Positions 10,629 through 46,945 of a DNA stretch of 64,000 bases are shown one piece after another. A program made the translations under genes and the position numbers. Below the pieces are notes generated by a model. It was not told the DNA's origin. It worked only from the letters and a program-made list of their open reading frames with translations, and searched no databases. Within the stretch, counting starts at the first letter, position 1. The number at the start of each line of letters is the position of its first letter. The DNA is from an uncultured Candidatus Saccharibacteria bacterium (GTDB taxonomy: Bacteria; Patescibacteriota; Dojkabacteria; SC72). The stretch is taken from assembly GCA_964610125.1 (NCBI GenBank), contig CAZSUV010000002.1:120940-184939 (forward strand). Reading direction: 5' to 3'.

Positions 10629-11570
10629 ATGAATATATTCCAAACTATTAAACAAGAAAAAGGATTTTTGGCTATGCTTTCCCCTATGGAGGATGTGACC
10701 GATACTGTTTTTAGGCAAGTGCTATGTAAGATTGGAAAACCTGATGTCTTTTTCACTGAATTTATGAATGTCGAGGGGTATTGTTCTGTTGGTAAGGATA
10801 AGGTAGATCATAGAATACAGTTTAGTGAAATTGAACGTCCGATTGTTATACAGCTTTGGGGAAATGTCCCTGAGGATTTTGCTAAAACGGTTAGAGAGAT
10901 TAAAGAGTTAAAACCTGATGGGTTTGATATTAACATGGGATGTGCTGTCCGAAATGTGATAAATACTGGCGGTGGTTCTGCATTGATTAAGGAGCCAGAA
11001 TTAGCCAAGGAGATAATTCTGGCAGTTAAACAAGAAGCGGGTGATATTCCTGTGAGTGTCAAGACTAGGTTGGGATATTCTATTGTTGATACAGAGAATT
11101 GGATTGGGCTTTTGCTAAATCAAGGCTTGGATATGCTTACTGTGCATGGAAGGATTGCTAAAGATAGTTATGCTATTCCTTCTAGATGGGATGAAATACA
11201 GAAGGTTGTAAAGATGCGAGATGAGCTTTCCCCGACTACATTGATTATTTGGAATGGTGATATTACTTCTTCTAGACAGGGGGAGGAATTTGTAAAGACA
11301 TATGGTACTGATGGGTATATGGTTGGGAGAGGGATTTTGAATAACCCATGGTTATTTAGTGGAAGAGAGGATATTCCCGAGGAAGAGCGATTTAATGTAT
11401 TGTTAGAACATGCAAAATTGTTTAATGGGGTTTGGGGTGAGGAGAAGAATTTTAGTGTTATTAAGAAGTATATAAAGACATATATTTCTGATTTTGAGGG
11501 GGCTAATGAATTAAGACAGAGGTTGATGATGGTGAATAGCTATGAGGATTTAAAGGAGATGATTAAGTAG
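10629..11570 (+). CDS. dus: tRNA-dihydrouridine synthase
   Basis: 'LSPMEDVTDTVFRQ' is the Dus N-terminal FMN-binding motif, and the 'CAVRNVINTGGGSALIKEPELAKEII' region matches Dus. The likely true start is the Met at 10674 ('MLSPMEDVTD'). Confidence 0.85.
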   Translation: MNIFQTIKQEKGFLAMLSPMEDVTDTVFRQVLCKIGKPDVFFTEFMNVEGYCSVGKDKVDHRIQFSEIERPIVIQLWGNVPEDFAKTVREIKELKPDGFDINMGCAVRNVINTGGGSALIKEPELAKEIILAVKQEAGDIPVSVKTRLGYSIVDTENWIGLLLNQGLDMLTVHGRIAKDSYAIPSRWDEIQKVVKMRDELSPTTLIIWNGDITSSRQGEEFVKTYGTDGYMVGRGILNNPWLFSGREDIPEEERFNVLLEHAKLFNGVWGEEKNFSVIKKYIKTYISDFEGANELRQRLMMVNSYEDLKEMIK

Positions 11571-12498
11571 GAAAATGCTCTTTTGCAAGATTCTCAAGCA
11601 TTCCAATAGAGGTGTTGTTATTTGAAGGCACTATCTCTTTGCATTGTAGATATTGGCTTATCTGTTCTATGATTAAAATCGCGTTATCTGCAGACCACAT
11701 ATAATATGGTTCTTCTGGGTATAATGGCATTCGATCCTCATAGGATAGTTTTTTAATTTTTTCATATACTTCCTTTAATGATTTAATATTCGTTTTGTAT
11801 TGATGGGAACCTGTAAAAATATATTTCTCCAATTTAATGCTCATAGCTTTCATAAAATCAATGATATTGGTTGTGCCATACACAATGTATTCTGGCTTAT
11901 GCATACATTGTTTTAAAGGAATAAACTCTTGCTTTAAGAACTGCTTTGCATTCCCATATTCCTTTTGCGTTGGAAAATGTGTAGCGTAAAATTCTTCTTG
12001 CATAAAATAGGTTCCTGCTTTGAATGGATATATTTCAAAAATATCATTGTCTTTCCCAACAATAACTTGTACACTCCCTCCTCCTACATCCACAACGGCT
12101 ATTGTTTGATTAGGAAAATCTCTCGAGACACTTTTGAATAGTGTGGATGCTTCTTCTTGAGCAGATATGATTTCAATATCAAACCCAGTTTCTCCTTTAA
12201 TTCTACTTAATACTTGGTTAACATTTTTAGCTTTTCTTAAAGCTTCTGTGGCAATTACTTTGTAATGTTTTACTTTGTTTTTTTGAAGTACTTCTCGATA
12301 TACTAGTAAGGTGTGTATTGCTTTTTGAATTGATTCTTCAACTATCATTCCATTGGTTTTAGGTAAGTCTCTCCCCATAACCGTTAACTCCTTCGCTTTG
12401 TAGAATACTTTTCTCCTTTGGTCTTTATCTATTTCATCAATTTCAAACTTTATCTTTAGTGTTCCAATATCTATGAGTGCAAATTTTTCAATTTTCAT
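11563..12498 (-). CDS. ppx: Ppx/GppA-family phosphatase (exopolyphosphatase / pppGpp phosphohydrolase)
   Basis: 'ALIDIGTLKIKFEI' and 'VVDVGGGSVQVIVG' are actin-like ASKHA phosphate motifs typical of Ppx/GppA. Confidence 0.75.
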   Translation of the reverse strand: MKIEKFALIDIGTLKIKFEIDEIDKDQRRKVFYKAKELTVMGRDLPKTNGMIVEESIQKAIHTLLVYREVLQKNKVKHYKVIATEALRKAKNVNQVLSRIKGETGFDIEIISAQEEASTLFKSVSRDFPNQTIAVVDVGGGSVQVIVGKDNDIFEIYPFKAGTYFMQEEFYATHFPTQKEYGNAKQFLKQEFIPLKQCMHKPEYIVYGTTNIIDFMKAMSIKLEKYIFTGSHQYKTNIKSLKEVYEKIKKLSYEDRMPLYPEEPYYMWSADNAILIIEQISQYLQCKEIVPSNNNTSIGMLENLAKEHFPT

Positions 12499-16703: not shown

Positions 16704-17741
16704 TTAATCTTTATGCATCTCTCCCAAAACTTCTTTGATGAATTCTTCAAAAGCTCTCTGTTTCAAATCAACATTCTTAACATATACCTGCCAATTCTCA
16801 TCATCATATACACTCATATCTGTACCCTTAGGAGCATTCTTCTTTAATTCTTCAATCCTAGTTGCTAGTTCAGCCTCAGTCATATCAATATTATGCTCTT
16901 TCATATACATCTTTAAGAATGTATCTGTCTGTAACGCTTCCTTAGAGTCCTTTTCCCAAAGCTCTCGCATCTTTTCAATGGTTAAATTCTGAGACTTTAT
17001 AAAGTCCTCAACCTTCACACCTTTCTGTTGCATATCATATCTAAATGATCTTTCTCTCTCATGAGCTTCATACATAATTGCAGGTTTAGGAATCTCAATC
17101 TCACAAAGCTTGATAGCTTCATCTAATGCTTTCTCTTGTCTTTGGTGTAAGAGCATATGTGCTTTTTGAGCTTTCATAGCTTCCTCTATCTCTTTTTTCA
17201 ACTCTTTTAGATCTTTTACTTCTGGAAGTTCTATCATCTTTGCAACTTCTACTGCCCATGCATCATTAACTTCTTTCTCTTTAGTTTTGTAATTCTTCTT
17301 AATATCTTCAATAGCCTCTTCAATCTCTTCTTTTGAGATGGTAGCTTCTTCTTTCTCAACCTTAACCCTTTTCAAATTTGCTAATTTGAATTCAGGCATA
17401 ACTGTAACTGTGATTGTTAGTTCCACATCCTTGTCTACTTCAAGCTTAGGAATCTCTTTGTACTCAGGAGGAGCGATAGGATCTAAACTTTCTTTTTGGA
17501 TTGCTGTTGAAATATACAAAGGTGCAATCTTTTCTAAAGTCTCTAATCTCACTGATTGATCAAGTTGAGTTTCGACTAACTTAGCAGGAACCTTTCCTTT
17601 TCTAAAACCCTTGATATCTGTTTCCTTAGCTTTTGCCTTCATCAAGGTCTCGTAGCTTTGATTAAAGCTATCCTTAGGTATGGTTATGGTAAATTCAATG
17701 GTCTCTTTACTAACATCTTTTCTCTGGTAAAAATCGTTCAT
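16704..17741 (-). CDS. tig: trigger factor (short form, apparently lacking the PPIase domain)
   Basis: The 'GFRKGKVP' ribosome-binding signature is in the N domain, and the gene is in tig-clpP order. It is 345 aa against about 430 typically. No FKBP-like segment is recognisable between the N and C domains. Confidence 0.75.
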   Translation of the reverse strand: MNDFYQRKDVSKETIEFTITIPKDSFNQSYETLMKAKAKETDIKGFRKGKVPAKLVETQLDQSVRLETLEKIAPLYISTAIQKESLDPIAPPEYKEIPKLEVDKDVELTITVTVMPEFKLANLKRVKVEKEEATISKEEIEEAIEDIKKNYKTKEKEVNDAWAVEVAKMIELPEVKDLKELKKEIEEAMKAQKAHMLLHQRQEKALDEAIKLCEIEIPKPAIMYEAHERERSFRYDMQQKGVKVEDFIKSQNLTIEKMRELWEKDSKEALQTDTFLKMYMKEHNIDMTEAELATRIEELKKNAPKGTDMSVYDDENWQVYVKNVDLKQRAFEEFIKEVLGEMHKD

Positions 17742-17779
17742 TTTTAATAATTCTTAACTTAATATTTAGTCCGAAAAGT

Positions 17780-18469
17780 CTACACTTTTTTGTATAGTTT
17801 GTCTAGTTTCGCTGTTATGACAAGCCTTTGTTCAGAAGTCCAAAGCGGTGTACATGTAATTAAGGTTAATCTGTAATCGTCTGTTTTCTGAAGAATGGAA
17901 ACGTCGTTGGGTTCGACTACTTGAATATCGGTAACAATGTATGTGTATGTACCTTCATCCTGATTTATCTTTATACTATCCCCAATCTTCACCTTATCCA
18001 GATTGAAGAATGTATTTTTCGCTGGAGGAAGATATTGGAATCTGTGTCCAATTACAACGACATTGCCCTTTTGACCTGGATACACTGAAGTTGGGAAATG
18101 CCAAAACCCTTCCATCATGGCGTGTGAGGTAGATCCTTCTGATATTCTCCCTGCTATGTTTGCAGTATCTATATTAAGGTTAGTATGCACTTCTTCCAGT
18201 ATCTTTCTATCTAGGATTAGACTTTCGTCTAGTGATTCTTCAATGGAGTCCGCTGCGAATACTTTGATTTGAAACTTCTCCAGTGTTGGAGAAATTCGAG
18301 AAAGAAAATCAATATATATATTCTTGGAAGTTCGATATGGGTTGAGATCTTGAATCATTAATGAAATCTTGTTGTATGAAGGATATATAAAAAGGAACCC
18401 CAAAAGTGTAATCACCAATAGTATGAGGAATACGGTTATACTTATTTTTGCAGTCCTATTTAATTGCAT
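17780..18469 (-). CDS. sortase-family transpeptidase
   Basis: It has an N-terminal transmembrane anchor, the catalytic His in 'VVIGHR', the catalytic Cys in 'LTLITCTP' (TLxTC) and a downstream Arg ('EQRLVITAKL'). Confidence 0.8.
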   Translation of the reverse strand: MQLNRTAKISITVFLILLVITLLGFLFIYPSYNKISLMIQDLNPYRTSKNIYIDFLSRISPTLEKFQIKVFAADSIEESLDESLILDRKILEEVHTNLNIDTANIAGRISEGSTSHAMMEGFWHFPTSVYPGQKGNVVVIGHRFQYLPPAKNTFFNLDKVKIGDSIKINQDEGTYTYIVTDIQVVEPNDVSILQKTDDYRLTLITCTPLWTSEQRLVITAKLDKLYKKV

Positions 18470-18564
18470 AATATGTATTTTACTATTTTTGGGCTACAGT
18501 TGCATTAATTATCAGTTTGTAATATTCTAAATATAGAAGTATATAATTTTAATATAGGCTTAGG

Positions 18565-19506
18565 ATGGCAAAAAACAAATCCAAATCTATAAATACTGCA
18601 CCCAAAGAAATTAGGAGGACAATTAAAAAAGAAGAATCCATGGTAGCTAAAGTTGAGGTAAAAACCCATAAAGATTCCGAAAAAGTTTCCCAAATAGTTG
18701 GCGCAATATTCATATTCTTAGGAGTATTGTTAGTAGCTTTAGGAGTATATTCGTTTGTAAAATATAGCTCTACTCCTGAACTGAAGGAATCGTTAGTATC
18801 TCCTTCTGTTTCTGAGATGGTAGCTGTTACCAAGGAAAGTGCAATTACTGTAAGTGGTAATGCAACCGGATATGACACAGTATATGTGTATGTTAATGGT
18901 GAGAAAGTAAAAGATGCAAAGGTTGGAACAAATGGTGATTTCAAAGCAGATATAACTCTAGAGAAGGAGGGGGAATATGATATTACTGTAGCTGGAGTTA
19001 AGGGCTTCCCAAAGCGATATGTCTCAGCTCAATCATTAGTGGAAAAGATCACAGTAGATAAAACTGCGCCTCTTTTAACAGAAATAACATATGCAAAAGA
19101 AGTTGGAACTCAAACATTTACTGTTACAGGTATTGTTGAAAAGGATGCGCAAGTAATTGTAAAGCGAGGAACTGACTATTACAGTGCAACATGTGATGCT
19201 GAGGGGAAATTTAAGATTGTAAGTATTGCATTGGATTCAGGATTAAATGTTTTCAATGTAGTAATTAAAGATATTGCAGGAAATGAATCTGTTATGGATT
19301 CTGAAATCAAAGTTACCTACTCTCCAGACAGTAGCGTTAATGGAGACGCTGTAAATGACAGTTCACTACCAGTTGCTGCAGGTGAATTTAGTAGAATGAC
19401 CGATTTCCTCTTTGGAAATAACTTGGTCATAGTCTTTGGAATATTAGCATTGCTCTCAGGTATTACTACAACCTCAGTGTTGTATGCAAAATCTAAGAGA
19501 GAATAA
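18565..19506 (+). CDS. Ig-like-domain surface protein with a C-terminal sorting-signal-like tail (candidate sortase substrate)
   Basis: It has an N-terminal signal anchor and beta-rich Ig-like repeats ('TVDKTAP', 'GTDYYSATCDAEGKFKI'). The C-terminus has 'LPVAAG', then a hydrophobic stretch 'LVIVFGILALLSGITTTSVLY', then a basic tail 'AKSKRE'. It is encoded divergently from the sortase gene. Confidence 0.6.
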   Translation: MAKNKSKSINTAPKEIRRTIKKEESMVAKVEVKTHKDSEKVSQIVGAIFIFLGVLLVALGVYSFVKYSSTPELKESLVSPSVSEMVAVTKESAITVSGNATGYDTVYVYVNGEKVKDAKVGTNGDFKADITLEKEGEYDITVAGVKGFPKRYVSAQSLVEKITVDKTAPLLTEITYAKEVGTQTFTVTGIVEKDAQVIVKRGTDYYSATCDAEGKFKIVSIALDSGLNVFNVVIKDIAGNESVMDSEIKVTYSPDSSVNGDAVNDSSLPVAAGEFSRMTDFLFGNNLVIVFGILALLSGITTTSVLYAKSKRE

Positions 19507-19528
19507 CCAAGATTAAATAGATTGTTTA

Positions 19529-19560
19529 AGGAGGGGGGCTTGTCTCCCCTCTTTTGTTTA
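19529..19560 (+). terminator. rho-independent terminator
   Basis: 'GGAGGGGGGcttgtcTCCCCTC' is a GC-rich stem-loop followed by 'TTTTGTTTA'. It lies 23 nt after the stop at 19506. Confidence 0.6.
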
Positions 19561-19600
19561 AAGCTGATATAATATGTGAAGTAAATTATTCATCATCATT

Positions 19601-20764
19601 ATGGGAAAAATATTTTCATTTAAAGATACTAGTAAAGAGATAAAAGAGGTTGAAAAAAGAAACTTAGAAGAACTTCGAGAAGCTGTAAAATATAGTGAGA
19701 AAGTTGAGAAACCAAAACCTGTAATTGTTGTTGAATTCTCATGGGGGCTTTTAGCCTTAGTGCTTTTAATCCTAGCGGTTATATTCTTTGGAAACCAACT
19801 AGTAAGTGTGGCCCTATTTCTTTTCTTAGGCTTTGTCTTTACATCTGCTGCAAGACCAGTGGTAAATTGGTTGATGTCCAAGAAGATCACAAAAGGTTGG
19901 GCAGTATTGATTACATACTTGGTAGCTATAATTCTTACTCTTTCTGTTCTTTCTGTTGTCATTATTCCTTTGGTAAGTCAGCTTACCGAACTAGTTAAAG
20001 TCTTCCCTGATTGGGTTGAAAAGGTTGTGGCAAACTTCAATGGTATAAAGTTTGGAAATATAAAGATTGATTCTGAAGAAATTACAAAATTTGTATCTAA
20101 TGGATTGCAATCTATCACCACAGGTGAGAGTTTGAAGAATGTTACTAATGCAGTATCTGGAGTATTTAGTACAACAGGTTTGTTTGTATCTTCTTTAATC
20201 CTTTCAATTTACTTAGTATTAGAGCATGACTCAATATTAGAATTTGGATTGATAAAAGTAGTATCTGATGAGAAGCGAGAGAGAATAAAAAAATTGGTAT
20301 TGGATGTTGAAGGCAAACTTGGAAGATGGATGCTCGGTCAGGCTACAATAAGTACAATTGCAGGAGTATTTGCTGGAATCTTACTTACAATATTTAAAGT
20401 TCCATTTGCTTTGCCTTTAGCTTTGTTAGTAGCATTACTTGATGCTGTCCCAGGGATTGGAGCTACCATTGCAGTAGCAATATGTGCTTTGATTGCACTC
20501 ATTACAGTAGGACTATGGCCTGCAGTAATATTGCTTGCAATATTCTTGGTATACCAGCAGGTTGAAAACAATTTCATTATTCCAAAGATAATGGGAAATG
20601 CTATTGGTCTCAAACCAGTAATAATTATGTTGGGTGTATTCATCTTCTTAATCCTCTTTGGAGTATTTGGAGCATTAATTGCAGTCCCATTCATGGTTAT
20701 ATTGCAAATATTCTATGAGTTCTATATCGACTTGCAAAAATTAAAAGCTAAAGGTATTGTTTAG
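19601..20764 (+). CDS. AI-2E family transporter (UPF0118/PerM/TqsA-like)
   Basis: It is a polytopic membrane protein with the family-typical 'LDAVPGIGATIAVAICALIALIT' segment. The protein is 387 aa. Confidence 0.75.
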   Translation: MGKIFSFKDTSKEIKEVEKRNLEELREAVKYSEKVEKPKPVIVVEFSWGLLALVLLILAVIFFGNQLVSVALFLFLGFVFTSAARPVVNWLMSKKITKGWAVLITYLVAIILTLSVLSVVIIPLVSQLTELVKVFPDWVEKVVANFNGIKFGNIKIDSEEITKFVSNGLQSITTGESLKNVTNAVSGVFSTTGLFVSSLILSIYLVLEHDSILEFGLIKVVSDEKRERIKKLVLDVEGKLGRWMLGQATISTIAGVFAGILLTIFKVPFALPLALLVALLDAVPGIGATIAVAICALIALITVGLWPAVILLAIFLVYQQVENNFIIPKIMGNAIGLKPVIIMLGVFIFLILFGVFGALIAVPFMVILQIFYEFYIDLQKLKAKGIV

Positions 20765-20797
20765 TATATATACCATTATTATTTAACTGCCCAGTAA

Positions 20798-23326
20798 ATG
20801 GAAAATTCAATACCAAGAAAGAACAATATATTCTTTTTTGAAGATTTCTCAGCTAAAGAATTGAATGAAAACAAGGTCGGTCGAAAAGGTCTTAGTCTTT
20901 TCAATCTTAAGGAGATGGATGTTCCAGTTCCTGAATTTTTTGTAGTTGCAAGTAATGTATATACTGAATTTTGTACCAAAGCATTAGGTGACAGAAAAGA
21001 AAAACTACTTGAAAAAGGTAAAAATCCCGAAAATGAAGAAGTACTTAAAGCTCTCTTAGAGGAAGAATTCTCAAAAGAAGTACAAGAAGATATTTTAAGT
21101 GCATATACTCGTCTTTCTGGTTTCTCAGATGCATGGGTGTCTGTACGATCTTCTGTAGTATTTCCTGCCAATGACAATATCTCCTTTAGTGGGATATTTA
21201 GTACAGAACTTAATGTTAGAAAATATGATGATCTAAAGAATGCAATCAAGAAGGTATATGGTTCTCTCTTCACTGATGATGTTGTGGCCTATGCAAACAA
21301 GATGGATATTGATCTTGCAGAGGTAAAGCTTGCTGTTGTTGTACAAAAGATGGTTCAAGCAGAGATATCAGGTGTGGTATTTACAGTAGATCCAATTACT
21401 CAAGACGAAACAAAGTTGGGTATTGAAGCAGTATATGGGCTTGGGGACGTCATATCTACTGGAGAAGTTACACCTGATTCATATCTTTTAAACAAGCGAG
21501 ATTTAGCTATTCTTGAAAAGCATATTGCTCCTCAAGAATGGATGAAGATTAGAACTATGAACCCTACAAGAGGGAGAAGAGGTAATGAGGAGAAGATTAA
21601 GATATCGGCAGGTTGGAGTCACAAACAGAAGTTAAATGACAAAGATATACAAGAGATCTCAAAGATTGCGTTGATCATAGAAAACAAATCTAGAATGCCA
21701 CAGAATATCGAATGGGTAATCTCTGGTGGTCGAGCTTGGGTATTACAGAACAAGTCCCTACTCTCTGACGTTATGCAATATCGTGTTAAGGTGGCTGAAA
21801 TGGAAATGCCAAGAAAATCTCTAAGAGATTTAGTCATAGCCTTCTTAGACAAATACAAGACCCAAGAGATGTTTGCTACTCAGGCTGTGAGTGATGCTCA
21901 GAGAATGGTAATGAAACAGAACAATGGACTTGGTGGAAAGATTGAGAGCTTGATTAATGCTGCAAAGACAAAACGAGAAGAGATTCAGAATGCACAGCAA
22001 TTAAGTAAGGAAGATCTTTTGGTATCCGGTATTGGTGCTAGCTTTGGAATCGTTGCAGGAAAAATAGCTGTAGTAGATCAACCTAATGGTAAGCTATATA
22101 CCAAGAATGATATCCTTTTGATAAAGAAATATTCAACTGAAATGGAATCCATGATTATTCCTTGTGGTGGTGTCATTATGGACTTTGGTGGTATTACAAG
22201 TGATACAGCTATTCTTTGTAGAGAGTTTAAGATCCCAGCTATTGTTGGTGCTACAAACGCTTCTACTCTACTTAAGGATGGTGATATGGTTAAAATTGAT
22301 GGAAATACAGGTAGTGTTTACAAAGATGTTGTAAAAGAAGAAGTACATCCTGTGGTTGAGACATATGGTGATGGTATCGACTTTATGAAAACTCAAGAAG
22401 AAGAGATTAAGGTTGAAGAACCCGCACTAAAGGTTGCTAAGGATACTACCCTACCTCCTTCTGCTACTAGAGTATTTAGTATGACCAACTTAGAGCCAGG
22501 CAAGTTAATAGACTTTGTTGGTAATGCTCATGGTTTGGTATATGTTGATTTAGATGAGATTATGCTTGATGAAGGTAGGCATCTTCTTGCATATGTTGAG
22601 GATCGTAAGTTCCTAGACTATGCTGCTAAGATCTCTGAGAGGGTTATAAAATATGTTGAATTAGCCGAAGGTAACGAAGTAGTTCTCTCCATTGGTTCTG
22701 CCACTATTGGTCAGTTTAAGAGTTTAACCAGAGGCAAGGAGTTTGAAGATCAGACATTGTCTAGTGAGATATATGGGGCTACACACTATGTAAATAACCT
22801 AGAATTACTAAAGAGAACTATTAAGATTGTTAAGAGGATTAGAAATATTTACAAGAAGAGGAATGTTTCGATTGCTCTCCACTCCCCTATGAATGAGGAT
22901 ATGATGAAAGAATTTAAGAAGCAGCTTTCGGGTGAGGGTTTGAGAAGAACTTCTTCCTTTAAGGTGTATGCAATATTGGATAACCCTTCTGAGATTATTC
23001 TTGCTGATGATATTCTTAATACCAAGATTGATGGTTTAATTCTTAATATTCCTCGTATTGCTAAACAGATGCAAGGGTTTAAGATTAGTGATGAGAATGC
23101 TAAGTATGATTTGAGTAGGAATAGTGTATTTAGAATTGTAGATAATGTTTTAGATATGGCTAAGGATCATGATAACAAGATTATATGTATTGTAGAGGAT
23201 TGTAAGCCATTATTAAGGCATTGTGTACAAGCAGGGGTATATGGTGTTTCTGTTTGTGCTGAGGATATTGCAGAGGCTAGAAAGGTTGTATCTGAGGAAG
23301 AAACGAAGTTGATATTGGGGAGATAA
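20798..23326 (+). CDS. phosphoenolpyruvate synthase (PpsA)-like three-domain protein with apparently degenerate catalytic motifs
   Basis: The N-terminal ATP-grasp region matches PpsA ('VGRKGLSLFNL...VPVPEFFVV', 'AWVSVRSSV', 'IEWVISGGRAWVLQNK'). The central swivel-domain motif is 'GGITSDTAILCREFKIPAIVGA' against PpsA '[22 protein letters not shown]', which puts Asp in the His position. In the C-terminal domain 'KVYAILDNPS...IDGLILNIPRIAK' aligns with PpsA 'KIIMMCEIPS...FDGFSIGSNDMTQ', which puts Leu in the Cys position. Confidence 0.7.
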   Translation: MENSIPRKNNIFFFEDFSAKELNENKVGRKGLSLFNLKEMDVPVPEFFVVASNVYTEFCTKALGDRKEKLLEKGKNPENEEVLKALLEEEFSKEVQEDILSAYTRLSGFSDAWVSVRSSVVFPANDNISFSGIFSTELNVRKYDDLKNAIKKVYGSLFTDDVVAYANKMDIDLAEVKLAVVVQKMVQAEISGVVFTVDPITQDETKLGIEAVYGLGDVISTGEVTPDSYLLNKRDLAILEKHIAPQEWMKIRTMNPTRGRRGNEEKIKISAGWSHKQKLNDKDIQEISKIALIIENKSRMPQNIEWVISGGRAWVLQNKSLLSDVMQYRVKVAEMEMPRKSLRDLVIAFLDKYKTQEMFATQAVSDAQRMVMKQNNGLGGKIESLINAAKTKREEIQNAQQLSKEDLLVSGIGASFGIVAGKIAVVDQPNGKLYTKNDILLIKKYSTEMESMIIPCGGVIMDFGGITSDTAILCREFKIPAIVGATNASTLLKDGDMVKIDGNTGSVYKDVVKEEVHPVVETYGDGIDFMKTQEEEIKVEEPALKVAKDTTLPPSATRVFSMTNLEPGKLIDFVGNAHGLVYVDLDEIMLDEGRHLLAYVEDRKFLDYAAKISERVIKYVELAEGNEVVLSIGSATIGQFKSLTRGKEFEDQTLSSEIYGATHYVNNLELLKRTIKIVKRIRNIYKKRNVSIALHSPMNEDMMKEFKKQLSGEGLRRTSSFKVYAILDNPSEIILADDILNTKIDGLILNIPRIAKQMQGFKISDENAKYDLSRNSVFRIVDNVLDMAKDHDNKIICIVEDCKPLLRHCVQAGVYGVSVCAEDIAEARKVVSEEETKLILGR

Positions 23327-23369
23327 CCCACACATTCAAATCCTTATTCGAAATTTTCACAAATGTTTT

Positions 23370-23399
23370 TTGTAAACATCTTTGTTCTGTCCTATAATG
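23370..23399 (+). promoter_or_regulatory. sigma70-type promoter TTGTAA-N18-TATAAT
   Basis: The sequence reads 'TTGTAAacatctttgttctgtccTATAAT'. It lies inside the ORF-track start of the next gene, which argues that the real start is the downstream Met at 23436. Confidence 0.45.
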
Positions 23400-23435
23400 T
23401 TAATTGGAAAAGGGTCTTTAAAAAAGGAAGAGATT

Positions 23436-23825
23436 ATGAATAAAAGATTTTTCAAAAGCCTTGGAAGAATAGCAAAAAAACAAACTAATACAAAAGTCAT
23501 GCACAAATATCTTGAGAAGATGAAAAATAAGTCCCCATTGCCATTAAATCAGGCATTCATTTTCTGGGGATTAACTCAGATTGGTTCGGAAGAGGAGCCA
23601 TGGAGTAGAGTCAAGATAATAAATTGGTTTGTCCCTGTGGATAAAACTCGAAAATGTACTCCAGCACAGGAAGAAATTTACAGAAGAATATTACATTCCT
23701 TTCCTCCCAATAAGGAGCTCAATGGAGATGTAAAAGAATATTTACAAGATATTCTCAATGAGGTTCCTCCGGGTATTACTTCTCTTTTAAGAGAAAAATT
23801 CAATACGATTTGTACTGAATTGTAA
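23436..23825 (+). CDS. hypothetical protein (129 aa)
   Basis: The start 'MNKRFFKSL' is preceded by the RBS 'AAGGAAG'. No motif is recognised. Confidence 0.45.
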   Translation: MNKRFFKSLGRIAKKQTNTKVMHKYLEKMKNKSPLPLNQAFIFWGLTQIGSEEEPWSRVKIINWFVPVDKTRKCTPAQEEIYRRILHSFPPNKELNGDVKEYLQDILNEVPPGITSLLREKFNTICTEL

Positions 23826-23951
23826 TATTAACCTTTTCCAACCACTGCCTAAAAAAGGGGTTCCCGTAAACATGTACTTAGTACACAGGAGCCCTTTTCT
23901 TAGCAATACCCATTTCTCTCATTATAGGTTTCTATGATATACTTTCCATAC

Positions 23952-26549
23952 ATGGAAGATACACCAATGATGAAACAATATATGGGTTTTAAGAAACAAT
24001 ACCCAGATAAAATACTACTCTACAGAATGGGAGATTTCTTCGAATCCTTTGGAGACGATGCCAAACTAACATCCAAAGTATTAAACATAACCCTAACCGC
24101 TAGAAACAAAGAAAACAACAACGTACCACTAGCAGGATTCCCACACAAAGCCATAGACCAATACCTACCCAAGTTAATAGCCGCAGGCTACTGTGTAGTA
24201 GTAGTAGACCAACTAGAAGACCCAAAGTTTGCAAAAGGAATAGTTAAACGAGGAGTAACAAGAATAGTAACACCCGGAACCCTAGACGGAGACGAAGCCA
24301 ATGCCGTAAAAAATTCCTACCTAGCAAGCTTCTACTTAGAAAAGAAAACCCTCTCAGTATCACTTTGTGATGTATCAACAGGAGAATCATTACTCATATC
24401 CGAGAAATATACAGAAAACAGTGTAAGCAATATCCTCTCATCATATTACCCAGAAGAGATATTAGTCATAGAAGGAGAAGACACCCTACTCTTCCCCAAC
24501 ACCCCAGTACACTTTGTAGAAAAAGGATTAAAGAACAAAGACTACGCAACAGAAATAGTAAAAGAATTCTACGGTATTAAAAATATGGAAAGCCTGGATA
24601 TATCTCAAGACAATGGAGATATCATAGCCGTAGGTATGGGATTACAGTACATCAAAGAAACCCAACTCATGGATCCAAAGCACATACTCAAACCCAAACG
24701 AGTAAATACAGACAGAACCATGATCCTCGACAGAGCAACCATTAGAAACCTAGAACTAGTAGCAAGTGCGTACAGTGGAAATATATCAGACTCACTCTTT
24801 GGAGTATTAGACAAGACTTCAACCAGAATGGGAAGAAGATTACTCTATTCATGGATATTAAATCCACTCATAGACAAGAAAAGCATAGATGAAAGATTAA
24901 ACATAGTAGAAAAGCTATACAACAAACAAGACTGCTTAACAGATATCAGAAGTAAATTAGAAAATATTAACGATATTGATCGAATAGTTGGAAAGATAGG
25001 GTTAAATCGAGCTAATGGAAGAGATTTCAATGCACTACAAGTATCATTAAAAAATGCATTAGAAATATCGGAAGTTTTAAAAAAGGAATTAGATATAGCA
25101 ACAGAAAATATTGATACTACAACGCTTGAAAAGTTAATTACACAGATTGAGGCAACCATTACAGATGATCCACCTACTACAATAACCGATGGTTGGATTA
25201 TAAAGACCGGCTTTAATCCAGAAGTAGATGAACTTAGATCCTTAAGCGGAGACAGCAAATCATGGTTAAAACAGTTTGAAGAAGATGAAAAAGCTAAAAC
25301 AGGGATCACATCATTAAAAATTAGCTTTAACAAAGTATTTGGATATTACATAGAGGTAACCAATTCTCACTTAACTAAAGTGCCAGAGAGATACATAAGA
25401 AAGCAAACCTTGGTAAATGCAGAGCGATTCATAACCGAAGAACTAAAAGCTAAGGAAGATATCATTCTTAATGCTCAAGAGAAGATTGGATCACTAGAAT
25501 ACAAGCTATTCTCTGAGTTTAGAGATACCTTCATTCCTCACCTTGAGACATTACATAAGGTAGCTACATTCATCGCAAATACAGATGTATTAGCAAACTT
25601 CGCATATATTGCATCTCAAAATGAATATGTAAAACCAAAGATATATGAGATTGGAGAGAAGAATGGGATTATTGATATCAAGAAAGGTCGTCACCCAATC
25701 GTTGAAAAGATATCTTCAGAAGAATTCATATCTAATGATACCCTCCTCAACTTTGAAGAATCCAATATGGCTATACTTACTGGGCCAAATATGTCAGGTA
25801 AATCTACATATATACGACAGGTAGCTACAATTGTATTGATGGCACAATTAGGAAGTTTTGTACCAGCATCAGAGGCTGAAATATCAATAGTGGATAGGAT
25901 ATTTACCAGAGTTGGAGCATCAGATGATCTATCAAGAGGAAGAAGTACTTTCATGGTAGAGATGGATGAGGCAGCAAATATAATTAACAATGCTACTAAG
26001 TATAGTTTGATTGTTCTTGATGAAGTTGGGCGTGGTACAAGCACCTATGATGGTGTGAGTATTGCATGGGCCATAGCTGAATACTTGGTTAATGAAAACA
26101 AGGCTCGTACCCTATTCGCTACCCACTATCATGAGCTTTTGAAATTAGCTGAAAAATTTCCAAACAGTGTTCAGAATTACAATGTATTAGTTGAGGAGGA
26201 TTTGGAAAAAGGTACGGTCATATTCCTTAGAAAGATTGTAAAAGGTGGAACTGACCGAAGCTATGGTATCTATGTCGCTAAGATGGCAGGACTTCCAATG
26301 AAGGTCATTAAGCGGGCAAATGAAATTCTTGAAGGTTTTGAGCAAAAAAACATGTTTGAATCAAAGAATGAGCTTAGGGATGTGGAAGCATTTGCATCAA
26401 AGAAACCATATGCACAAAATACTTTCCAAATGCCATTGTTTACAGCAAAAGATTCAGAAGTAGAACAAGAGATACAGAAGTTGAATTTGGATAATCTAAC
26501 TCCAATTGAGGCATTAAACAAGATAGCTGAATGGAAGAAAAAGATCTAA
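23952..26549 (+). CDS. mutS: DNA mismatch repair protein MutS
   Basis: 'TPMMKQYMGFKKQYPDKILLYRMGDFFE' matches the MutS N-terminus, 'GPNMSGKSTYIRQVA' is the Walker A motif and 'DEVGRGTSTYDGVSIAWA' is also present. The start is taken at 'MEDTPMM' rather than the ORF-track start at 23934. Confidence 0.9.
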   Translation: MEDTPMMKQYMGFKKQYPDKILLYRMGDFFESFGDDAKLTSKVLNITLTARNKENNNVPLAGFPHKAIDQYLPKLIAAGYCVVVVDQLEDPKFAKGIVKRGVTRIVTPGTLDGDEANAVKNSYLASFYLEKKTLSVSLCDVSTGESLLISEKYTENSVSNILSSYYPEEILVIEGEDTLLFPNTPVHFVEKGLKNKDYATEIVKEFYGIKNMESLDISQDNGDIIAVGMGLQYIKETQLMDPKHILKPKRVNTDRTMILDRATIRNLELVASAYSGNISDSLFGVLDKTSTRMGRRLLYSWILNPLIDKKSIDERLNIVEKLYNKQDCLTDIRSKLENINDIDRIVGKIGLNRANGRDFNALQVSLKNALEISEVLKKELDIATENIDTTTLEKLITQIEATITDDPPTTITDGWIIKTGFNPEVDELRSLSGDSKSWLKQFEEDEKAKTGITSLKISFNKVFGYYIEVTNSHLTKVPERYIRKQTLVNAERFITEELKAKEDIILNAQEKIGSLEYKLFSEFRDTFIPHLETLHKVATFIANTDVLANFAYIASQNEYVKPKIYEIGEKNGIIDIKKGRHPIVEKISSEEFISNDTLLNFEESNMAILTGPNMSGKSTYIRQVATIVLMAQLGSFVPASEAEISIVDRIFTRVGASDDLSRGRSTFMVEMDEAANIINNATKYSLIVLDEVGRGTSTYDGVSIAWAIAEYLVNENKARTLFATHYHELLKLAEKFPNSVQNYNVLVEEDLEKGTVIFLRKIVKGGTDRSYGIYVAKMAGLPMKVIKRANEILEGFEQKNMFESKNELRDVEAFASKKPYAQNTFQMPLFTAKDSEVEQEIQKLNLDNLTPIEALNKIAEWKKKI

Positions 26550-38794: not shown

Positions 38795-41700
38795 TTAATT
38801 CAATTTGACGCCATTTAGACCCAGGCCTTCTAATTTAAACGATGCAAAGGTATCTGCAAATTGAGCAGTTGGAGACCAATCGCTTGCGGAGTCATCTGTG
38901 TCCCAGAATTTTATACGCCAGTACAAAGTCACGTTTGAGTTTGTAAGTGCTATCCCTGCATATGGATATAGTGAGGATCGTGTTCCACTCGCAACTGTGG
39001 TAGATGTTTTCCCAGAATCCCACATAATTGTTCCAGTAAAAAATGCGTTGCTGTTTACTTGTATTTGGTATGCAGCTGCATTATCCATATTAGGATCAGA
39101 ATAGATCGCAGTGAAATATGGGGGTATGTGTGTAAGAGATGGTGGGTTTACCATGGTATTTGTTTGTAATGATGTTGGTGTATCTGGAATTCCTTGCATA
39201 GTAAATTGATTTGTAGCAGACCAGACGCCTTCTGCATTATTGTTGTCCCAGAATTTTATTTTCCAGTAATATATTTCTCCTTCATTTAATGTAGAGCCTG
39301 TGTATGTAATATCTCCGGATCTAGTACCATTTGTAATTTCTGAGATTGAAGTTTTCGATGAATTCCACATACTAGTTCCAGTAAAATTCGATGCTGTATT
39401 TACAAGAATTTGATAGTAAGCTCCTGTATCTGATGTGTCAGGATCATTAAATATGGCAGAGAATGTTGGAGTGGCAGAGGTTACTTTGGTTGGGTTCGTT
39501 GCATCTTGGCAATATGGTATTGTCGGCTCTGTAGGAAGAGCATTTGTAGTGAATTGGGCAGTTGATGACCAAGAACCTTCATTTGAAGTCGATTTGTTGT
39601 CCCAAAATTTTACCCTCCAATAGTATGTTGTTCCGTCTTGTAAGGAACTTCCTGCATATACCATATCTGAAGATCGATAACCATTCCAAATAGCTTGGGA
39701 AAAAGCAGTTTTTGTAGAATCCCACATAATTGTTCCAGTAAAATCTGCCATTGTGTTCACCTGTACTTGATAGTAGTTTCCTGTGTTAAAAGCGTTAGAA
39801 TCACTAAATATCGCAGTGAACTCTGGAGTAGAATCAATTACGCTAGTTGGATTGGTTTGTCCCTCGGTTTGTAAAGAAGATGGTGCATCTGGGGCGATAT
39901 TACTAACCTCTTCTGATCCGAATGTGAATGTTTGGGAGGTTTTCCTTTGGTAGAAAGGAGTTTCAATATATGCGGGGACATTAGAGGCTGATGCTGTTGT
40001 TGTTGAACAAGAATGAGTGTGCATTGAAGCTGCTGCTGATATTGCTCTACTACCAGTACTATTATATCCACCCCCAGGATTTGTAACTATAGTTACGGAA
40101 TGTGTATGTGTAGCAGCCCCTCCTGTTCCACCTTGCGTAGCTGCTCCTCGTGGAAATAGGTTATCGAGAGCTGTATACCTTGTCCAACCCAAGGGTGGTG
40201 CACTTGTTGTCATACTGATTAATCCAGATATTGCGTAACCAGTGGTATCTTTCGCGGCATAAATCATATCAAGATATGGAGGAACTGAGTTTCCTGAATC
40301 AGTTGATCCATTGGCTGTTGTATGAGTATGCTCTCCTGCCCCGTTGTCTCCACCCGGGGAGTCGTTTCTTGTGCCTGAACCACCTGTGGTATATCCACCA
40401 GTAGTTGTATGTGTATGTGTAGTAGCTCCGCCTGTTCCTCCATATGTGCTAGCACCTCTGGCAAATTTACTGTCCAATGCTGAAAATCTTGTCCAGCCTG
40501 ATGGAGTACTTGTGAACAGTGTGACCATGCCAGCATCAATATTTAAATCCGGATTAACGCAATAGACCATATCAAGGTATGGAGGGGCGTTTGTTACATT
40601 ATCAACGCTAACCATAGCATTTGTGTGTGTGTGTGATGGGGAAGATGTTGCTCCTCCAGAATCACTTTGTGTATATGCTGATGCACTTGGTCCTCCGGTT
40701 GTACAGCTAGGAGTACCATTGTTGTGTGTTGCAGAGCCACCATTTGTTCCAAATGTAGCTGCACCATAGGTGTATTTCCCATCATATTCTGTTTTGCGTG
40801 TCCATCCTGTTGGGCAGCTAGTATTGTTAAGAAGCATAAATTCTCCAGTCCATGATTCTTCTGAATTTGTGGTAGAAGAATTACCATAATACATATAGAT
40901 TGTTTTACCCCCGACAGTGAGAGAGGGTATCTGTACCCAGACCTGTGTTGCTGAAGTATTGCATCCTCCTTCTACCCAATATTTTAAAGTAGTTGTTTCA
41001 TCACTATCTGTGAATATTAAATCATCGCAATCTCCTTGCATTTTACCTGCAGTTATTAAGGAAGCTGTATCTATTAGAACTAGAACATCTTCGTTAGTAA
41101 GAGTCGATCCACTTGTATTACTTACGAGAACAGGTCTTCTATATGATAAATTTACGCTTTGCCATGTACCCCTATCAGTGGAAAATTGCGCTACAGAAGA
41201 CCAATCACTAACCTTTGATCCCTGATTACTATTATCCCAGAATCTGATTCTCCAGTAATATGTTGTTCCTTCTTGTAGAGCAGAACCGGCATATGATATA
41301 TCCTGAGATCTATTACCATTTGTGATAGATGGAGAGAGTGTTGTTTGGGTTGAATCCCACATAATTGTCCCAGTAAAATCCGATGCTGTATTTATTTGTA
41401 TTTGGAAGTAGATTGCCGAATCTGAGGCGTTTGGGTCTGTATATATTGCACTAAATTTTGGAGTATTATTTGTAATTTCTGAAGGATTGGTTGTCCCATC
41501 TGTAAGTAATGAAGTTGGTGCATCAGGTGCGTCATTCCGTGTTTCTTCGGAATTTATTGTTATGGATTGAGAGGTCTTCTTTTGTATGAATATTGTTTCT
41601 ATATATGGTGGATTGTTTGAAACATCTGTTGTTGTAGTAGCAGAAGTGGTATGTGTATGTGCTCTTGGTTTGTTTGTTGTAGGAGTTGTAGTTGCGCAAG

Positions 41701-45541: not shown

Positions 45542-46945
45542 TCAATTTTTTTGATGCTTTAAAATATTCTTTAATATTTTTTCTTTTGAACTTTGAGAAT
45601 TGACGGATTGTAAAGCATTTACATCCTGAAATCTTTTATCTTTTTGTGTTTTTATTTCAACCAAATCGCCTGTTTTTATCTCTTGTCCAAGTTTTGCGGC
45701 ATTATTATTTATTTTTACTCCTACCGCACTATTCCCTATTTGTGAGTGTATTCGATATGCGAAATCTAAAGCGGTATCTCCTTTGGAGAGTGGAATTATC
45801 TCTCCTTTAGGAGTAAATGCAAAGATATCTTCAGGGAAGAGATTTACTTCGATTGGAGAGTTATTTTCTTCTTTTCTGTTTTGTATATTCTTTTCTATTC
45901 CTTTGTGTACCTCTTCTACCCAACTGTATTTGTCAGTAGGATTGGCATATCTGCTCTTGCTTGCTTTGTATGCGATATGTGAAGCTTGACCATATGTATT
46001 GGTATAGTGCATGGCATCTGTGAGGACCTGCACCTCTATTTCTAAATCTGAAATTTCAGGGAATTTAACTAGACTGTGTATTGCCATGTATCCATTGGGC
46101 TTTGGGTTTGAAATGTAATCATCAAATTTATCGATATTGAGTTCGCCATAGTCCATCAATTTCTCAAGTACTTTGTAGCAAGTATTTATATCTTTTGGTA
46201 CGCATCTAAATGCCATTAGGTCATCAATGGATTTAATGTTTGGAGCTTTCCATTCCTTTTCATACTTCTTTAACTTATTGTAGACACTGTACTTGCTTTT
46301 TATCCTTCCATATATCTCAACATCAAGACCTTCGGTTTTTGATTTAAGAAAGGATATGTATTTCTCCAGAAGCTTTTGATCAATACTATTTGCATCATAT
46401 CTTTCATCAATAGCTTGATATTCCACAGGGAGAGTTAATTGGAATGCTCTTTCATCTATTTCGGTTTTGAGACTCCCAAGATCTAGTAGCTCTGCAATTT
46501 CAGCATATATTGTCTGTGCTTGTCTAAAATATATCTTTTTGTATCCTTCATTTACTGATTCTGGATTTCTCACCTTATCAAGTACACTTGCGAGTTTTAT
46601 GATTACAGATCTTAAATCCTTTGCATTATTTAAAATATATTTAGTTATGATTTCATCCTTGGTATCTTCATTTTTAGTTGTAGCCTCTATGACCCTCACT
46701 CCCTTTACAATATTTTGTACTGCCTCTGATTGTTCAGCATCTTTATTTGCATCATGAAGCAGTGCTGCAATGATTGTAGTGGTATCAAATCCAAGTTCTG
46801 CAATTATGAGTGCAGTTCCCAATAGATGCTTTTGCATTTTGAAATCCAACGAAGAGATCGAAGTCATAACTTTGAGAATTTCATCCTTAAACTTCTGAGG
46901 ACTATTCTGTAATATCTTTTGTTGTATTTTTTCTAATTCTTCCAT
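45542..46945 (-). CDS. rel: RelA/SpoT-family (p)ppGpp synthetase/hydrolase, short form
   Basis: The HD domain is 'HLLGTALIIAELGFDTTTIIAALLHDANKD'. The synthetase region is 'RIKSKYSVYNKLKK...IDDLMAFRCV...NPKPNGYMAIHSL'. The TGS domain is 'IFAFTPKGEIIPLSKGDTALDFAYRIHSQIGN'. The protein is 467 aa and has no ACT domain. Confidence 0.8.
   Translation of the reverse strand: MEELEKIQQKILQNSPQKFKDEILKVMTSISSLDFKMQKHLLGTALIIAELGFDTTTIIAALLHDANKDAEQSEAVQNIVKGVRVIEATTKNEDTKDEIITKYILNNAKDLRSVIIKLASVLDKVRNPESVNEGYKKIYFRQAQTIYAEIAELLDLGSLKTEIDERAFQLTLPVEYQAIDERYDANSIDQKLLEKYISFLKSKTEGLDVEIYGRIKSKYSVYNKLKKYEKEWKAPNIKSIDDLMAFRCVPKDINTCYKVLEKLMDYGELNIDKFDDYISNPKPNGYMAIHSLVKFPEISDLEIEVQVLTDAMHYTNTYGQASHIAYKASKSRYANPTDKYSWVEEVHKGIEKNIQNRKEENNSPIEVNLFPEDIFAFTPKGEIIPLSKGDTALDFAYRIHSQIGNSAVGVKINNNAAKLGQEIKTGDLVEIKTQKDKRFQDVNALQSVNSQSSKEKILKNILKHQKN

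Follow-up and report, generated by a model that had tools for sequence, protein, structure and literature searches.

The closest described counterparts of the protein considered here are the phosphoenolpyruvate (PEP) synthases (PpsA; EC 2.7.9.2), represented by the enzymes of E. coli, P. furiosus (8a8e), S. marinus (9dae) and N. meningitidis (2ols). The protein itself is the PpsA-like, three-domain product of an open reading frame (ORF) in a 64-kb stretch of contig CAZSUV010000002.1 from assembly GCA_964610125.1, referred to below as the window. It has the same three domains as PpsA in the same order and can be aligned with it from end to end; the phosphate and Mg ligands of the ATP-grasp domain, a swivel motif that departs from the canonical one by a single residue, and the fold of the C-terminal barrel are alike in both. 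The differences lie elsewhere. The phosphohistidine of the swivel domain is replaced by an aspartate, Asp469. Arginines of the PEP site give way to Asp584 and Ser631, the Arg of GxRG to Tyr659, the Mg-ligand Glu to Asp728 and the GSND motif to NIPR; the catalytic Cys is Val in the family, and in the ATP-grasp domain Asp and Arg are replaced by Asn303 and Lys319.

PPDK (EC 2.7.9.1; C. symbiosum 1kbl/1dik) has superfamily, fold and the logic of a swivelling domain in common with the protein from the window (Foldseek E 1e-29). It is more distant than PpsA, at 12-14% identity in the fold search, and the same catalytic positions are missing here; in PPDK numbering we take these to be His455, Arg561, Arg617, Glu745, Asn768, Asp769, Cys831 and Arg337. 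Enzyme I of the phosphotransferase system (2hwg, 2xz9) likewise has a swivel domain and a PEP-binding TIM barrel, but it has no ATP-grasp domain, and its His189 and canonical PEP ligands are missing from the query. RPH-Lm (5fbs/5hv1), the prodigiosin ligases PigC, RedH and HapC, and HpeI (9goj) represent systems in which ATP-grasp and swivel domains were kept while acceptor site and substrate changed; RPH-Lm depends on its swivel His825. RPH carries its swivel domain at the C-terminus and has a third domain that is no TIM barrel, a domain order different from the one seen here, and the NCBIfam cut-offs for RPH, PigC and RedH are missed (177-221 bits against 999-1350).

Phosphorylation of a carboxylate with Mg-ATP is established chemistry in aspartyl-phosphate enzymes. 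Receiver domains, HAD phosphatases, P-type ATPases and classical ATP-grasp ligases resemble the present case by this chemical analogy only, the carrier domain here having no sequence or fold relation to receiver or HAD folds. All characterised enzymes that combine ATP-grasp and swivel domains depend, to our knowledge, on phosphohistidine.

Domain layout, family conservation and the phosphohistidine position

Pfam, an AlphaFold2 (AF2) model and Foldseek place the PpsA domain order of ATP-grasp, swivel and TIM barrel in the protein of ORF 20798-23326. An earlier reading of the DNA letters without database searches (the sequence-only reading) had noted a good match to PEP synthase in the first two domains. 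Pfam bears this out: PPDK_N (PF01326) is found at aa 25-320 with 214.3 bits against a gathering score of 27 (E 4e-63), and the PEP-utilizers mobile domain (PF00391) at aa 436-505 with 60.9 bits against 23.1 (E 9e-17). For the C-terminal domain, PEP-utilizers_C (PF02896) remains below its gathering score of 22.8, scoring 17.8 bits when the full protein is searched and 20.8 bits when only the domain is, although homology to this family is clear from fold and profile alignment. The domain alone, searched against Pfam at E <= 10, matched no HpcH/HpaI, ICL, PK or other TIM-barrel family, and sub-threshold PEP-utilizers_C was its sole match. The PpsA equivalog model NF005057 aligns end to end, aa 9-840 of the protein corresponding to profile positions 5-794 of 798, and the curated equivalog cut-offs are missed by about half (NF005057, 313.1 against 598 bits; TIGR01418, 290.2 against 739.75 bits). 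The AF2 model, made from 70 homologues, has a mean pLDDT (predicted local distance difference test) of 75.7; its C-terminal domain, at 80-92, folds as a (beta/alpha)8 barrel and superposes on S. marinus PpsA 9dae_A with a template modelling (TM) score of 0.80 and a root-mean-square deviation of 2.8 A, and on P. furiosus PPSA 8a8e_A with a TM score of 0.83. The top Foldseek match in the PDB is PpsA 2ols (E 1e-34), with PPDKs and rifampin phosphotransferase ranking after it. Structurally, the protein as modelled is homologous to PEP synthase over its full length.

A search of 5.8 billion proteins at E <= 1e-10 returned 533 relatives. Counts out of 121 refer to the query plus the best 120 of these, which are 53-94% identical to it and all about 840-870 aa long. 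With each GTDB species represented by one genome, a scan gave 95 loci that encode such a protein; 80 were kept, and 78 of these cover the swivel motif. Compared with a 98%-identical orthologue (locus L001), the ratio of nonsynonymous to synonymous substitution rates (dN/dS) is 0.037 overall, and 0.025, 0.040 and 0.036 for the ATP-grasp, swivel and C-terminal domains. Mean column identity is near-equal across the three (0.78, 0.76 and 0.74), the two linkers alone being free; conservation is highest in the ATP-grasp domain, where it reaches at least 98% in 32% of the columns. The gene is real and under strong purifying selection, not decaying, and there can be little doubt that its product is a functional protein under selection. 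With dN/dS near 0.04 in each of the three domains, the idea of simple decay in a reduced genome is argued against.

The phosphohistidine position was compared in six alignments: phmmer against P. furiosus and S. marinus PpsA, whose structures are solved, a re-run against a reconstructed P. furiosus fragment, a profile-profile alignment of the family with six canonical PpsA, and BLASTP and hhalign against E. coli PpsA from MG1655. The numbering of the reconstructed fragment (His442 in TSH, Cys756 in ICG) agrees with the structural paper on P. furiosus PPSA. The window encodes the motif FGGITSDTAILCREFKIPAIVGA, which holds the GAT codon of Asp469. Opposite this residue stands the phospho-His in P. 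furiosus PPSA (His442), in S. marinus PpsA, in E. coli PpsA (His421) and in a further six canonical PpsA. All six alignments agree. The sequence-only reading had proposed Asp for His at this very codon by comparison with E. coli motifs; both the substitution and the motifs (His421 in GGRTCH, Cys679 in MMCEIPS, Asn703-Asp704 in GSNDMTQ) are correct. No neighbouring His can substitute, because the query lacks His throughout its swivel domain (aa 400-512), and none of the columns of this domain has His in more than 6 of the 121 family members. The same facts support the further claim that the protein cannot carry out a His-phosphorelay.

Apart from the change of His to Asp, the swivel motif GGxTS-x-xAIxxRExxIPxxVG is unbroken. 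Gly465, Thr467, Ser468, Arg475, Glu476, Pro480 and Gly484 are invariant in the family and Gly464 nearly so, as in the true enzymes. Asp469 occurs in 121/121 homologues, down to 53% identity, and Glu is never seen there in the family. T-S-D is read in 78/78 species loci that cover the motif, down to 41% identity, encoded with GAT in 68 and GAC in 10, and Asp also occupies this column in deeper clades at 35-45% identity. The orthologues in related genomes therefore carry the same substitution, a point the sequence-only reading had left to be checked. Since the substitutions are fixed across the whole phylum, Asp469 is not a chance matter.

Two other residues of the motif were considered. Thr467 was rejected as a candidate for accepting the phosphoryl group in place of Asp469, since the NSD clade described below has Asn there and conservation of the Thr is thus not universal. 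Cys474 (22217-22219), five residues past Asp469 on the same helix (TSDTAILCRE), is a family-specific feature found in 118/121 sequences; the position is Ser or Ala in canonical enzymes, and the Cys is missing from the NSD-type clade.

The ATP-grasp site, the barrel pocket and the wider relatives

In the ATP-grasp domain, Lys30, Arg117, Thr136, Glu305 and Gln317 are invariant in the family, and the phosphate and Mg ligands of a PpsA-type site are kept. Alignment counterparts in RPH-Lm are Lys22, Arg117, Thr136 and Glu297, which touch ATP phosphates or Mg according to mutagenesis or structure, three of them being essential. Changes specific to the family are Asp to Asn303 and Arg to the invariant Lys319. 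Position 303, beside the Mg-ligand Glu, is relaxed to Asn, Val, Leu, Ile and others in Asp-type proteins, and the position of Lys319 is presumably that of Arg337 in C. symbiosum PPDK. As a separate observation, aa 247-278 (21536-21631) form a low-confidence segment of the ATP-grasp domain, with pLDDT below 50 at 247-274. At its end stands Ser274-His275 (WSH; WVE in P. furiosus PPSA), invariant in the family, as are Glu265, Ile269, Ser270 and Lys278.

The roles of the residues of the PEP site are well established from work on PPDK, PpsA and Enzyme I. Seven of these columns are invariant Arg, Glu, Arg, Arg, Glu, Asn and Asp in six canonical PpsA; their replacements in the family are listed in Table 1. 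In the pocket of the query's clade, Asp584, Asp586, Gly633, Gly660, Tyr664 and Pro752 are invariant, Glu800 is present in 120/121 sequences, and Asp728, Asn750 and His663 are nearly invariant. Further invariant polar residues of the barrel are His595, Glu650, Arg682, Arg688, Asn689, Lys707, Arg717, Glu732, Asp745, Gln759, Tyr770, Ser776, Arg828 and Glu835. Because every canonical ligand position that was mapped is changed, the binding of PEP or pyruvate with Mg in the canonical manner, and with it the canonical chemistry, is judged from the alignments to be excluded. This agrees with the sequence-only reading, which had denied the protein PEP/pyruvate chemistry on condition that its alignment was correct, as do the equivalog scores given above. 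The protein of ORF 20798-23326 is almost certainly not a PEP synthase.

The same reading had placed a C-terminal loss of catalytic Cys at a Cys-to-Leu change, and here it stands only in part. KVYAILDNPS does align with KIIMMCEIPS and DGLILNIPRIAK with DGFSIGSNDMTQ, and the GSND motif is lost. However, the column of E. coli Cys679 (MMCEIPS), which is Leu727 in the query, holds Val in six other canonical PpsA, so Cys679 is not catalytic. According to the structural paper on the P. furiosus enzyme, Cys756 (ICGQ) is the sole Cys engaged in catalysis, and its E. coli equivalent is Cys751 (GICGQ). The counterpart in the query is Cys797 by pairwise HMMER and Val799 by profile alignments. Position 797 is Val in 106/121 sequences, Ala in 10 and Cys in 2, namely the query and its closest relative (L001 has Cys too), and position 799 is Val in 91/121. 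With Cys in only 2/121 sequences, Cys797 is incidental, and it was rejected as a rescued catalytic Cys. Judged by these columns, the family is without a conserved Cys at the catalytic-Cys site; the claim that the catalytic Cys is absent thus survives, with the wrong residue having been named for it.

More distant relatives came from an exhaustive HMMER search of 1.84 billion representatives clustered at 50% identity, with 26,809 matches at E <= 0.001. Among the best 150 of these, 88 have a residue at column 469, which is Asp in 46, His in 22 and another residue in 20 (Tyr, Phe, Glu, Ser, Lys, Arg, Pro, Gln, Asn, Ile or Ala). Canonical His-type relatives carry Arg584, Glu586, Arg631, Glu728, Asn752 and Asp753 together with Arg319. 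The residues at 469 and 319 pair as Asp/Lys in 35, Asp/Arg in 6, His/Arg in 15 and His/Lys in 1 (Fisher p = 3e-8, one clade dominating the counts). Ten positions of the swivel motif were scored on an alignment built on the Asp-type family profile, a possible source of bias under which His-type sequences still scored 9; the median number kept is 9 in Asp-type and 9 in His-type sequences, and 5 in the other lineages (p = 6e-6). A neighbour-joining tree of the ATP-grasp domain alone, which carries no support values, groups most Asp-type sequences into a single contiguous block, at the edge of which the Asp/Arg319 forms lie. P0263 (Asp/Lys) and P0223 and P0180 (Asp/Arg) are placed among the His-type sequences, and such scattered Asp proteins suggest that several independent changes of His to Asp may have occurred.

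Many other PpsA-like proteins in public data are without the His and form a set of their own. In these the swivel motif is decayed and the ATP-grasp residues are largely kept, a mean of 3.8 of 5 compared with 4.3 in His- and Asp-type sequences; examples are P0151, P0154, P0160, P0161, P0163, P0166, P0174, P0175, P0179, P0195, P0198, P0200, P0211, P0226, P0236, P0243, P0247, P0269 and others.

Dojkabacteria also contain a second, shorter form of about 690-750 aa with GGxNSD and Lys319 (P0339, P0150, P0337-P0354), here called NSD-type. P0339 (L081 8001-10211) lies directly upstream of mutS and is for this reason taken as a positional orthologue; the AI-2E gene found at the query locus is missing upstream of it. 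The NSD-type C-terminal domain is only remotely alignable with that of the query (hhalign 93% over 111 columns), with the motifs K(K/R)xLS..RR(T/S) and IDG(L/I)I common to both. This divergence leaves the ATP-grasp and Asp-swivel domains as the core conserved across the phylum. The barrel pocket is conserved within clades and varies between them, at positions 728, 752, 753 and 800 in the deeper Asp-type clades.

Table 1. Positions in the window of the PpsA-like gene, its domains and key residues and its neighbours, with the substitutions at the canonical PEP-site columns
Feature	Positions	Strand	Basis or conservation
PpsA-like three-domain ORF ("PPSL")	20798..23326	+	842 aa plus stop; Pfam, NCBIfam, phmmer, AF2, Foldseek
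ATP-grasp nucleotide-binding domain, aa 25-320	20870..21757	+	Pfam PPDK_N
Lys319 codon, canonical Arg position	21752..21754	+	Invariant in family; change co-occurs with Asp469
Swivel (mobile) domain, aa 404-510	22007..22327	+	Pfam PEP-utilizers
Asp469 codon GAT, phosphohistidine position	22202..22204	+	Six agreeing alignments; invariant in family
C-terminal (beta/alpha)8 barrel, aa 556-842, homologue of the PEP-binding domain	22463..23323	+	AF2 pLDDT 80-92, Foldseek
Asp584-Leu-Asp586 for canonical Arg-x-Glu (LLRAE) of PEP phosphate site	22547..22555	+	Both Asp invariant
Asp728 at Mg-ligand Glu (MxEIP)	22979..22981	+	Asp in 119/121; preceding residue is Leu727
Asn750-Ile-Pro752-Arg753 for Gly-Ser-Asn-Asp (GSND)	23045..23056	+	Mg/substrate Asp replaced by Arg
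Cys797-Ile-Val799, region matching catalytic Cys (ICGQ)	23186..23194	+	Pairwise and profile alignments
AI-2E family permease gene	19601..20764	+	Ends 33 nt upstream of the PpsA-like gene
mutS	23934..26549	+	Downstream neighbour in 69-70/80 loci; also downstream of the NSD-type orthologue
LLRAE Arg to Asp584			Invariant in family
LLRAE Glu to Asp586			Invariant in family
YRATD Arg to Ser631			103/121
GFRG Arg to Tyr659			74/121
MxEIP Glu to Asp728			119/121
GSND Asn to Pro752			Invariant in family
GSND Asp to Arg753			108/121

Possible roles of Asp469

The conservation pattern is read most economically, we infer, as that of a protein in which ATP chemistry and the GGxTS phosphate loop are in use. 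Tentatively, and with somewhat less than even confidence, we favour the view that this is a Dojkabacteria-wide orthologue of a three-domain protein derived from PEP synthase whose function has changed, a repurposed ATP enzyme dependent on Asp469. A direct chemical role for Asp469 in an ATP-dependent reaction is held with the same reserve, as a proposal a little short of evens. It draws on the Asp being invariant and never Glu, the phosphate loop and ATP/Mg ligands being intact, the correlated change of Arg to Lys in the ATP site, and the retention of flexible linkers. Of the two possibilities that the sequence-only reading had offered, a pseudoenzyme and a repurposed protein, the latter is the one toward which dN/dS, the invariant Asp, the intact loop and ligands and the Arg-to-Lys change that tracks Asp469 lean.

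In the proposed mechanism, the ATP-grasp domain would still bind and cleave Mg-ATP, and the mobile domain would bring Asp469 to the ATP-grasp site. There Asp469 would act as a specific catalytic carboxylate, most likely as the phosphoryl acceptor that forms an acyl phosphate; alternatively it might serve as a metal ligand or general base. Formation of acyl phosphates is the ancestral chemistry of ATP-grasp enzymes, whose classical targets for phosphorylation are carboxylates; on chemical grounds, an acyl phosphate on Asp469 would therefore be plausible. The mobile domain would then swing to the remodelled pocket of the barrel (Asp584, Asp586, Ser631, Asp728, Arg753 and Glu800), where an acceptor other than pyruvate would be bound or the phosphate released. 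The acidic re-lining of the barrel (Asp584, Ser631, Tyr659) suggests an acceptor different from pyruvate, as judged from residue identity, and would let a phosphorylated or acidic Asp469 dock there only with the help of a metal or cationic ligand; the acceptor itself may be cationic or metal-bridged. This most specific version, in which Asp469 on the swivelling domain would bear an acyl phosphate and deliver the group to a barrel-bound acceptor, is an unlikely one taken by itself.

Several points weigh against the repurposed enzyme. The side chain of Asp is shorter than that of His, and in-line attack on the ATP beta-phosphate would therefore need repositioning. The pocket varies in deeper Asp-type clades (728, 752, 753, 800) and the NSD-type C-terminal domain is only remotely alignable; such variation between clades makes a single defined acceptor site less likely. 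Because one clade dominates the counts, the co-variation of 469 with 319 is not phylogenetically independent. Relaxation at position 303 could be a sign of lost catalysis. An acidic residue at the phospho-His site fits a phosphomimetic, conformationally locked pseudoenzyme as well, and so does retention of the swivel motif.

The explanation that competes most closely is accordingly a dead pseudoenzyme, in which Asp469 would mimic the charge of phospho-His and lock or bias the swivel while ATP is only a ligand. The protein would then be a sensor, a regulator, a scaffold (for the AI-2E permease, for instance) or an oligomeric structural protein. Loss of the essential nucleophile and of all mapped PEP and Mg ligands is what this explanation would predict, and the relaxed canonical Asp at position 303, the drift of the C-terminal pocket between deep clades and the very diverged NSD-type C-terminal domain fit it too. 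Assorted residues at column 469 in 20/88 representatives mean that loss of the His has been repeatedly tolerated in the superfamily. A regulatory partner would suit the tight adjacency to the AI-2E gene, the immediate upstream neighbour on the same strand in 72/80 loci with a gap of 7-38 nt; this adjacency, however, is missing in NSD-type orthologues, lies inside a phylum-wide synteny and may be historical. It is harder to see why a charge mimic should be strictly Asp and never Glu, which mimics the charge as well, why the phosphate loop and ATP-grasp ligands should be conserved as in true enzymes, unlike in other His-less lineages, or why purifying selection should be equally strong on all three domains. 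We regard the pseudoenzyme as a serious candidate, though on balance a rather improbable one.

Classical ATP-grasp enzymes need no carrier domain, and the protein might instead be a direct kinase or ligase that works through its ATP-grasp domain without a covalent carrier, with the swivel and barrel retained only for structural reasons or for oligomerisation, and with Asp469 having a role in structure or docking. The strong conservation of this domain (32% of columns at the 98% level) and its lowest dN/dS are as expected, and its key residues persist in lineages with a decayed swivel motif. This would leave unexplained both the invariant Asp469 with GGxTS...RE...IPAVVG, which is decayed in other His-less lineages, and the tracking of Asp469 by the Arg319Lys change; beyond the low-confidence insert 247-274, no extra substrate-binding element is seen in the ATP-grasp domain of the AF2 model. 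We consider such an enzyme distinctly unlikely.

A genuine but divergent PEP synthase (pyruvate, water dikinase) that uses alternative residues is close to refuted. End-to-end homology to NF005057, the top Foldseek match to PpsA, the names given by JGI, NCBI and UniRef, and a query Cys797 near the catalytic Cys position all speak for it; against it are scores at about half the equivalog cut-offs, a swivel domain without His, replacement of both PEP-phosphate Arg, the GxRG Arg and the GSND Asn-Asp, Glu-to-Asp at the Mg ligand, and the presence of Cys797 in only 2/121 relatives. A decaying gene, or a sequencing or assembly error at the His codon, is refuted: CAT and GAT are one base apart and the genome is reduced, but the 842-codon frame is intact at a dN/dS of about 0.04, and 121 proteins and 78 independent species assemblies share the Asp, with GAT and GAC both in use.

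A search of the literature on Dojkabacteria PEP synthase, PEP-utilising pseudoenzymes and replacement of catalytic His turned up no paper that describes a PpsA of His-less or Asp type. Databases already list the sequences of the family under names that are generic or wrong, among them "PEP/pyruvate-binding domain-containing protein", "pyruvate, water dikinase" and "phosphoenolpyruvate synthase" in JGI, NCBI and UniRef. One Candidate Phyla Radiation (CPR) study found that PEP synthase matches needed manual thresholds, and Dojkabacteria are described as having an extremely minimal metabolism (PMC7304191, PMC5113843). Metabolic reconstructions that count the PpsA-like gene as a PEP/pyruvate step or a gluconeogenic entry are probably wrong. 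The retention of an 842-codon gene under such selection in the small episymbiont genomes of these uncultured bacteria implies an important role there. A phylum-wide exchange of His for Asp in an otherwise intact swivel machine would surprise specialists; with the phosphate loop and ATP site conserved, it offers a clean case for distinguishing an acyl-phosphate carrier from a phosphomimetic pseudoenzyme. If the carrier is real, a swivelling aspartyl phosphate would be a catalytic mechanism as yet undescribed in the PEP-utilising superfamily and one fixed in a whole CPR phylum.

Genomic neighbourhood and source genomes

The family appears confined to Dojkabacteria (WS6). Named members are assigned to Candidatus Dojkabacteria or candidate division WS6, with some automated titles reading Saccharibacteria and one Nomurabacteria. 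The title "uncultured Candidatus Saccharibacteria" is given to many species-representative metagenome-assembled genomes (MAGs) in which the gene and its synteny are of the Dojkabacteria type (L002-L005, L007 and L009, for example). Such titles, and the single "Candidatus Nomurabacteria", are probably taxonomic mislabels of automated submission.

The window is small-genome housekeeping DNA of about 35% GC. Its genes include those for trigger factor, a sortase, an Ig-domain surface protein, the AI-2E permease, the PpsA-like protein, MutS, HisRS, PBP1, PheT, a Clp ATPase, Dus, Ppx/GppA, ThrRS, RecG, RelA/SpoT, TyrRS, MgsA and PBP2, along with one tRNA-Val. A terminator scan of the window found none between the AI-2E and PpsA-like genes and a terminator-like hairpin before the AI-2E gene. 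Co-transcription of these two genes is likely, but does not speak for a shared function. The order trigger factor, sortase, Ig protein, AI-2E, PpsA-like, MutS (16704-26549) is found phylum-wide, down to 41% protein identity, and is unusually stable for genes of unrelated functions. A functional operon with the AI-2E gene or mutS was considered and rejected: the adjacency is real yet weak evidence, being part of this phylum-wide syntenic block, and it is weakened further by the missing AI-2E gene upstream of the NSD-type form and by up to 3.3 kb of unrelated genes before mutS in this species.

The spacer between the PpsA-like gene and mutS (23327-23933) is variable, 0.6 kb here and 18-130 nt in most Dojkabacteria. 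It contains an ORF (23382-23825) of 147 aa with a TTG start and no Pfam match, present in 1/80 related loci. The corresponding spacer in L001 (10530-13817) is 3.3 kb long and holds four reverse-strand genes.

Elsewhere in the window, a 1377-aa ORF on the reverse strand (38795-42931) combines DUF2341 with four Rha78A-like Ig repeats and coincides with the sole GC bump, 0.41 at 40-42 kb compared with about 0.35 otherwise. A Ppx/GppA phosphatase (11563-12498) and a RelA/SpoT-family protein with HD, synthetase and TGS domains (45542-46945) are both encoded on the reverse strand, and the presence of these two genes suggests that (p)ppGpp signalling may be retained in this reduced genome.

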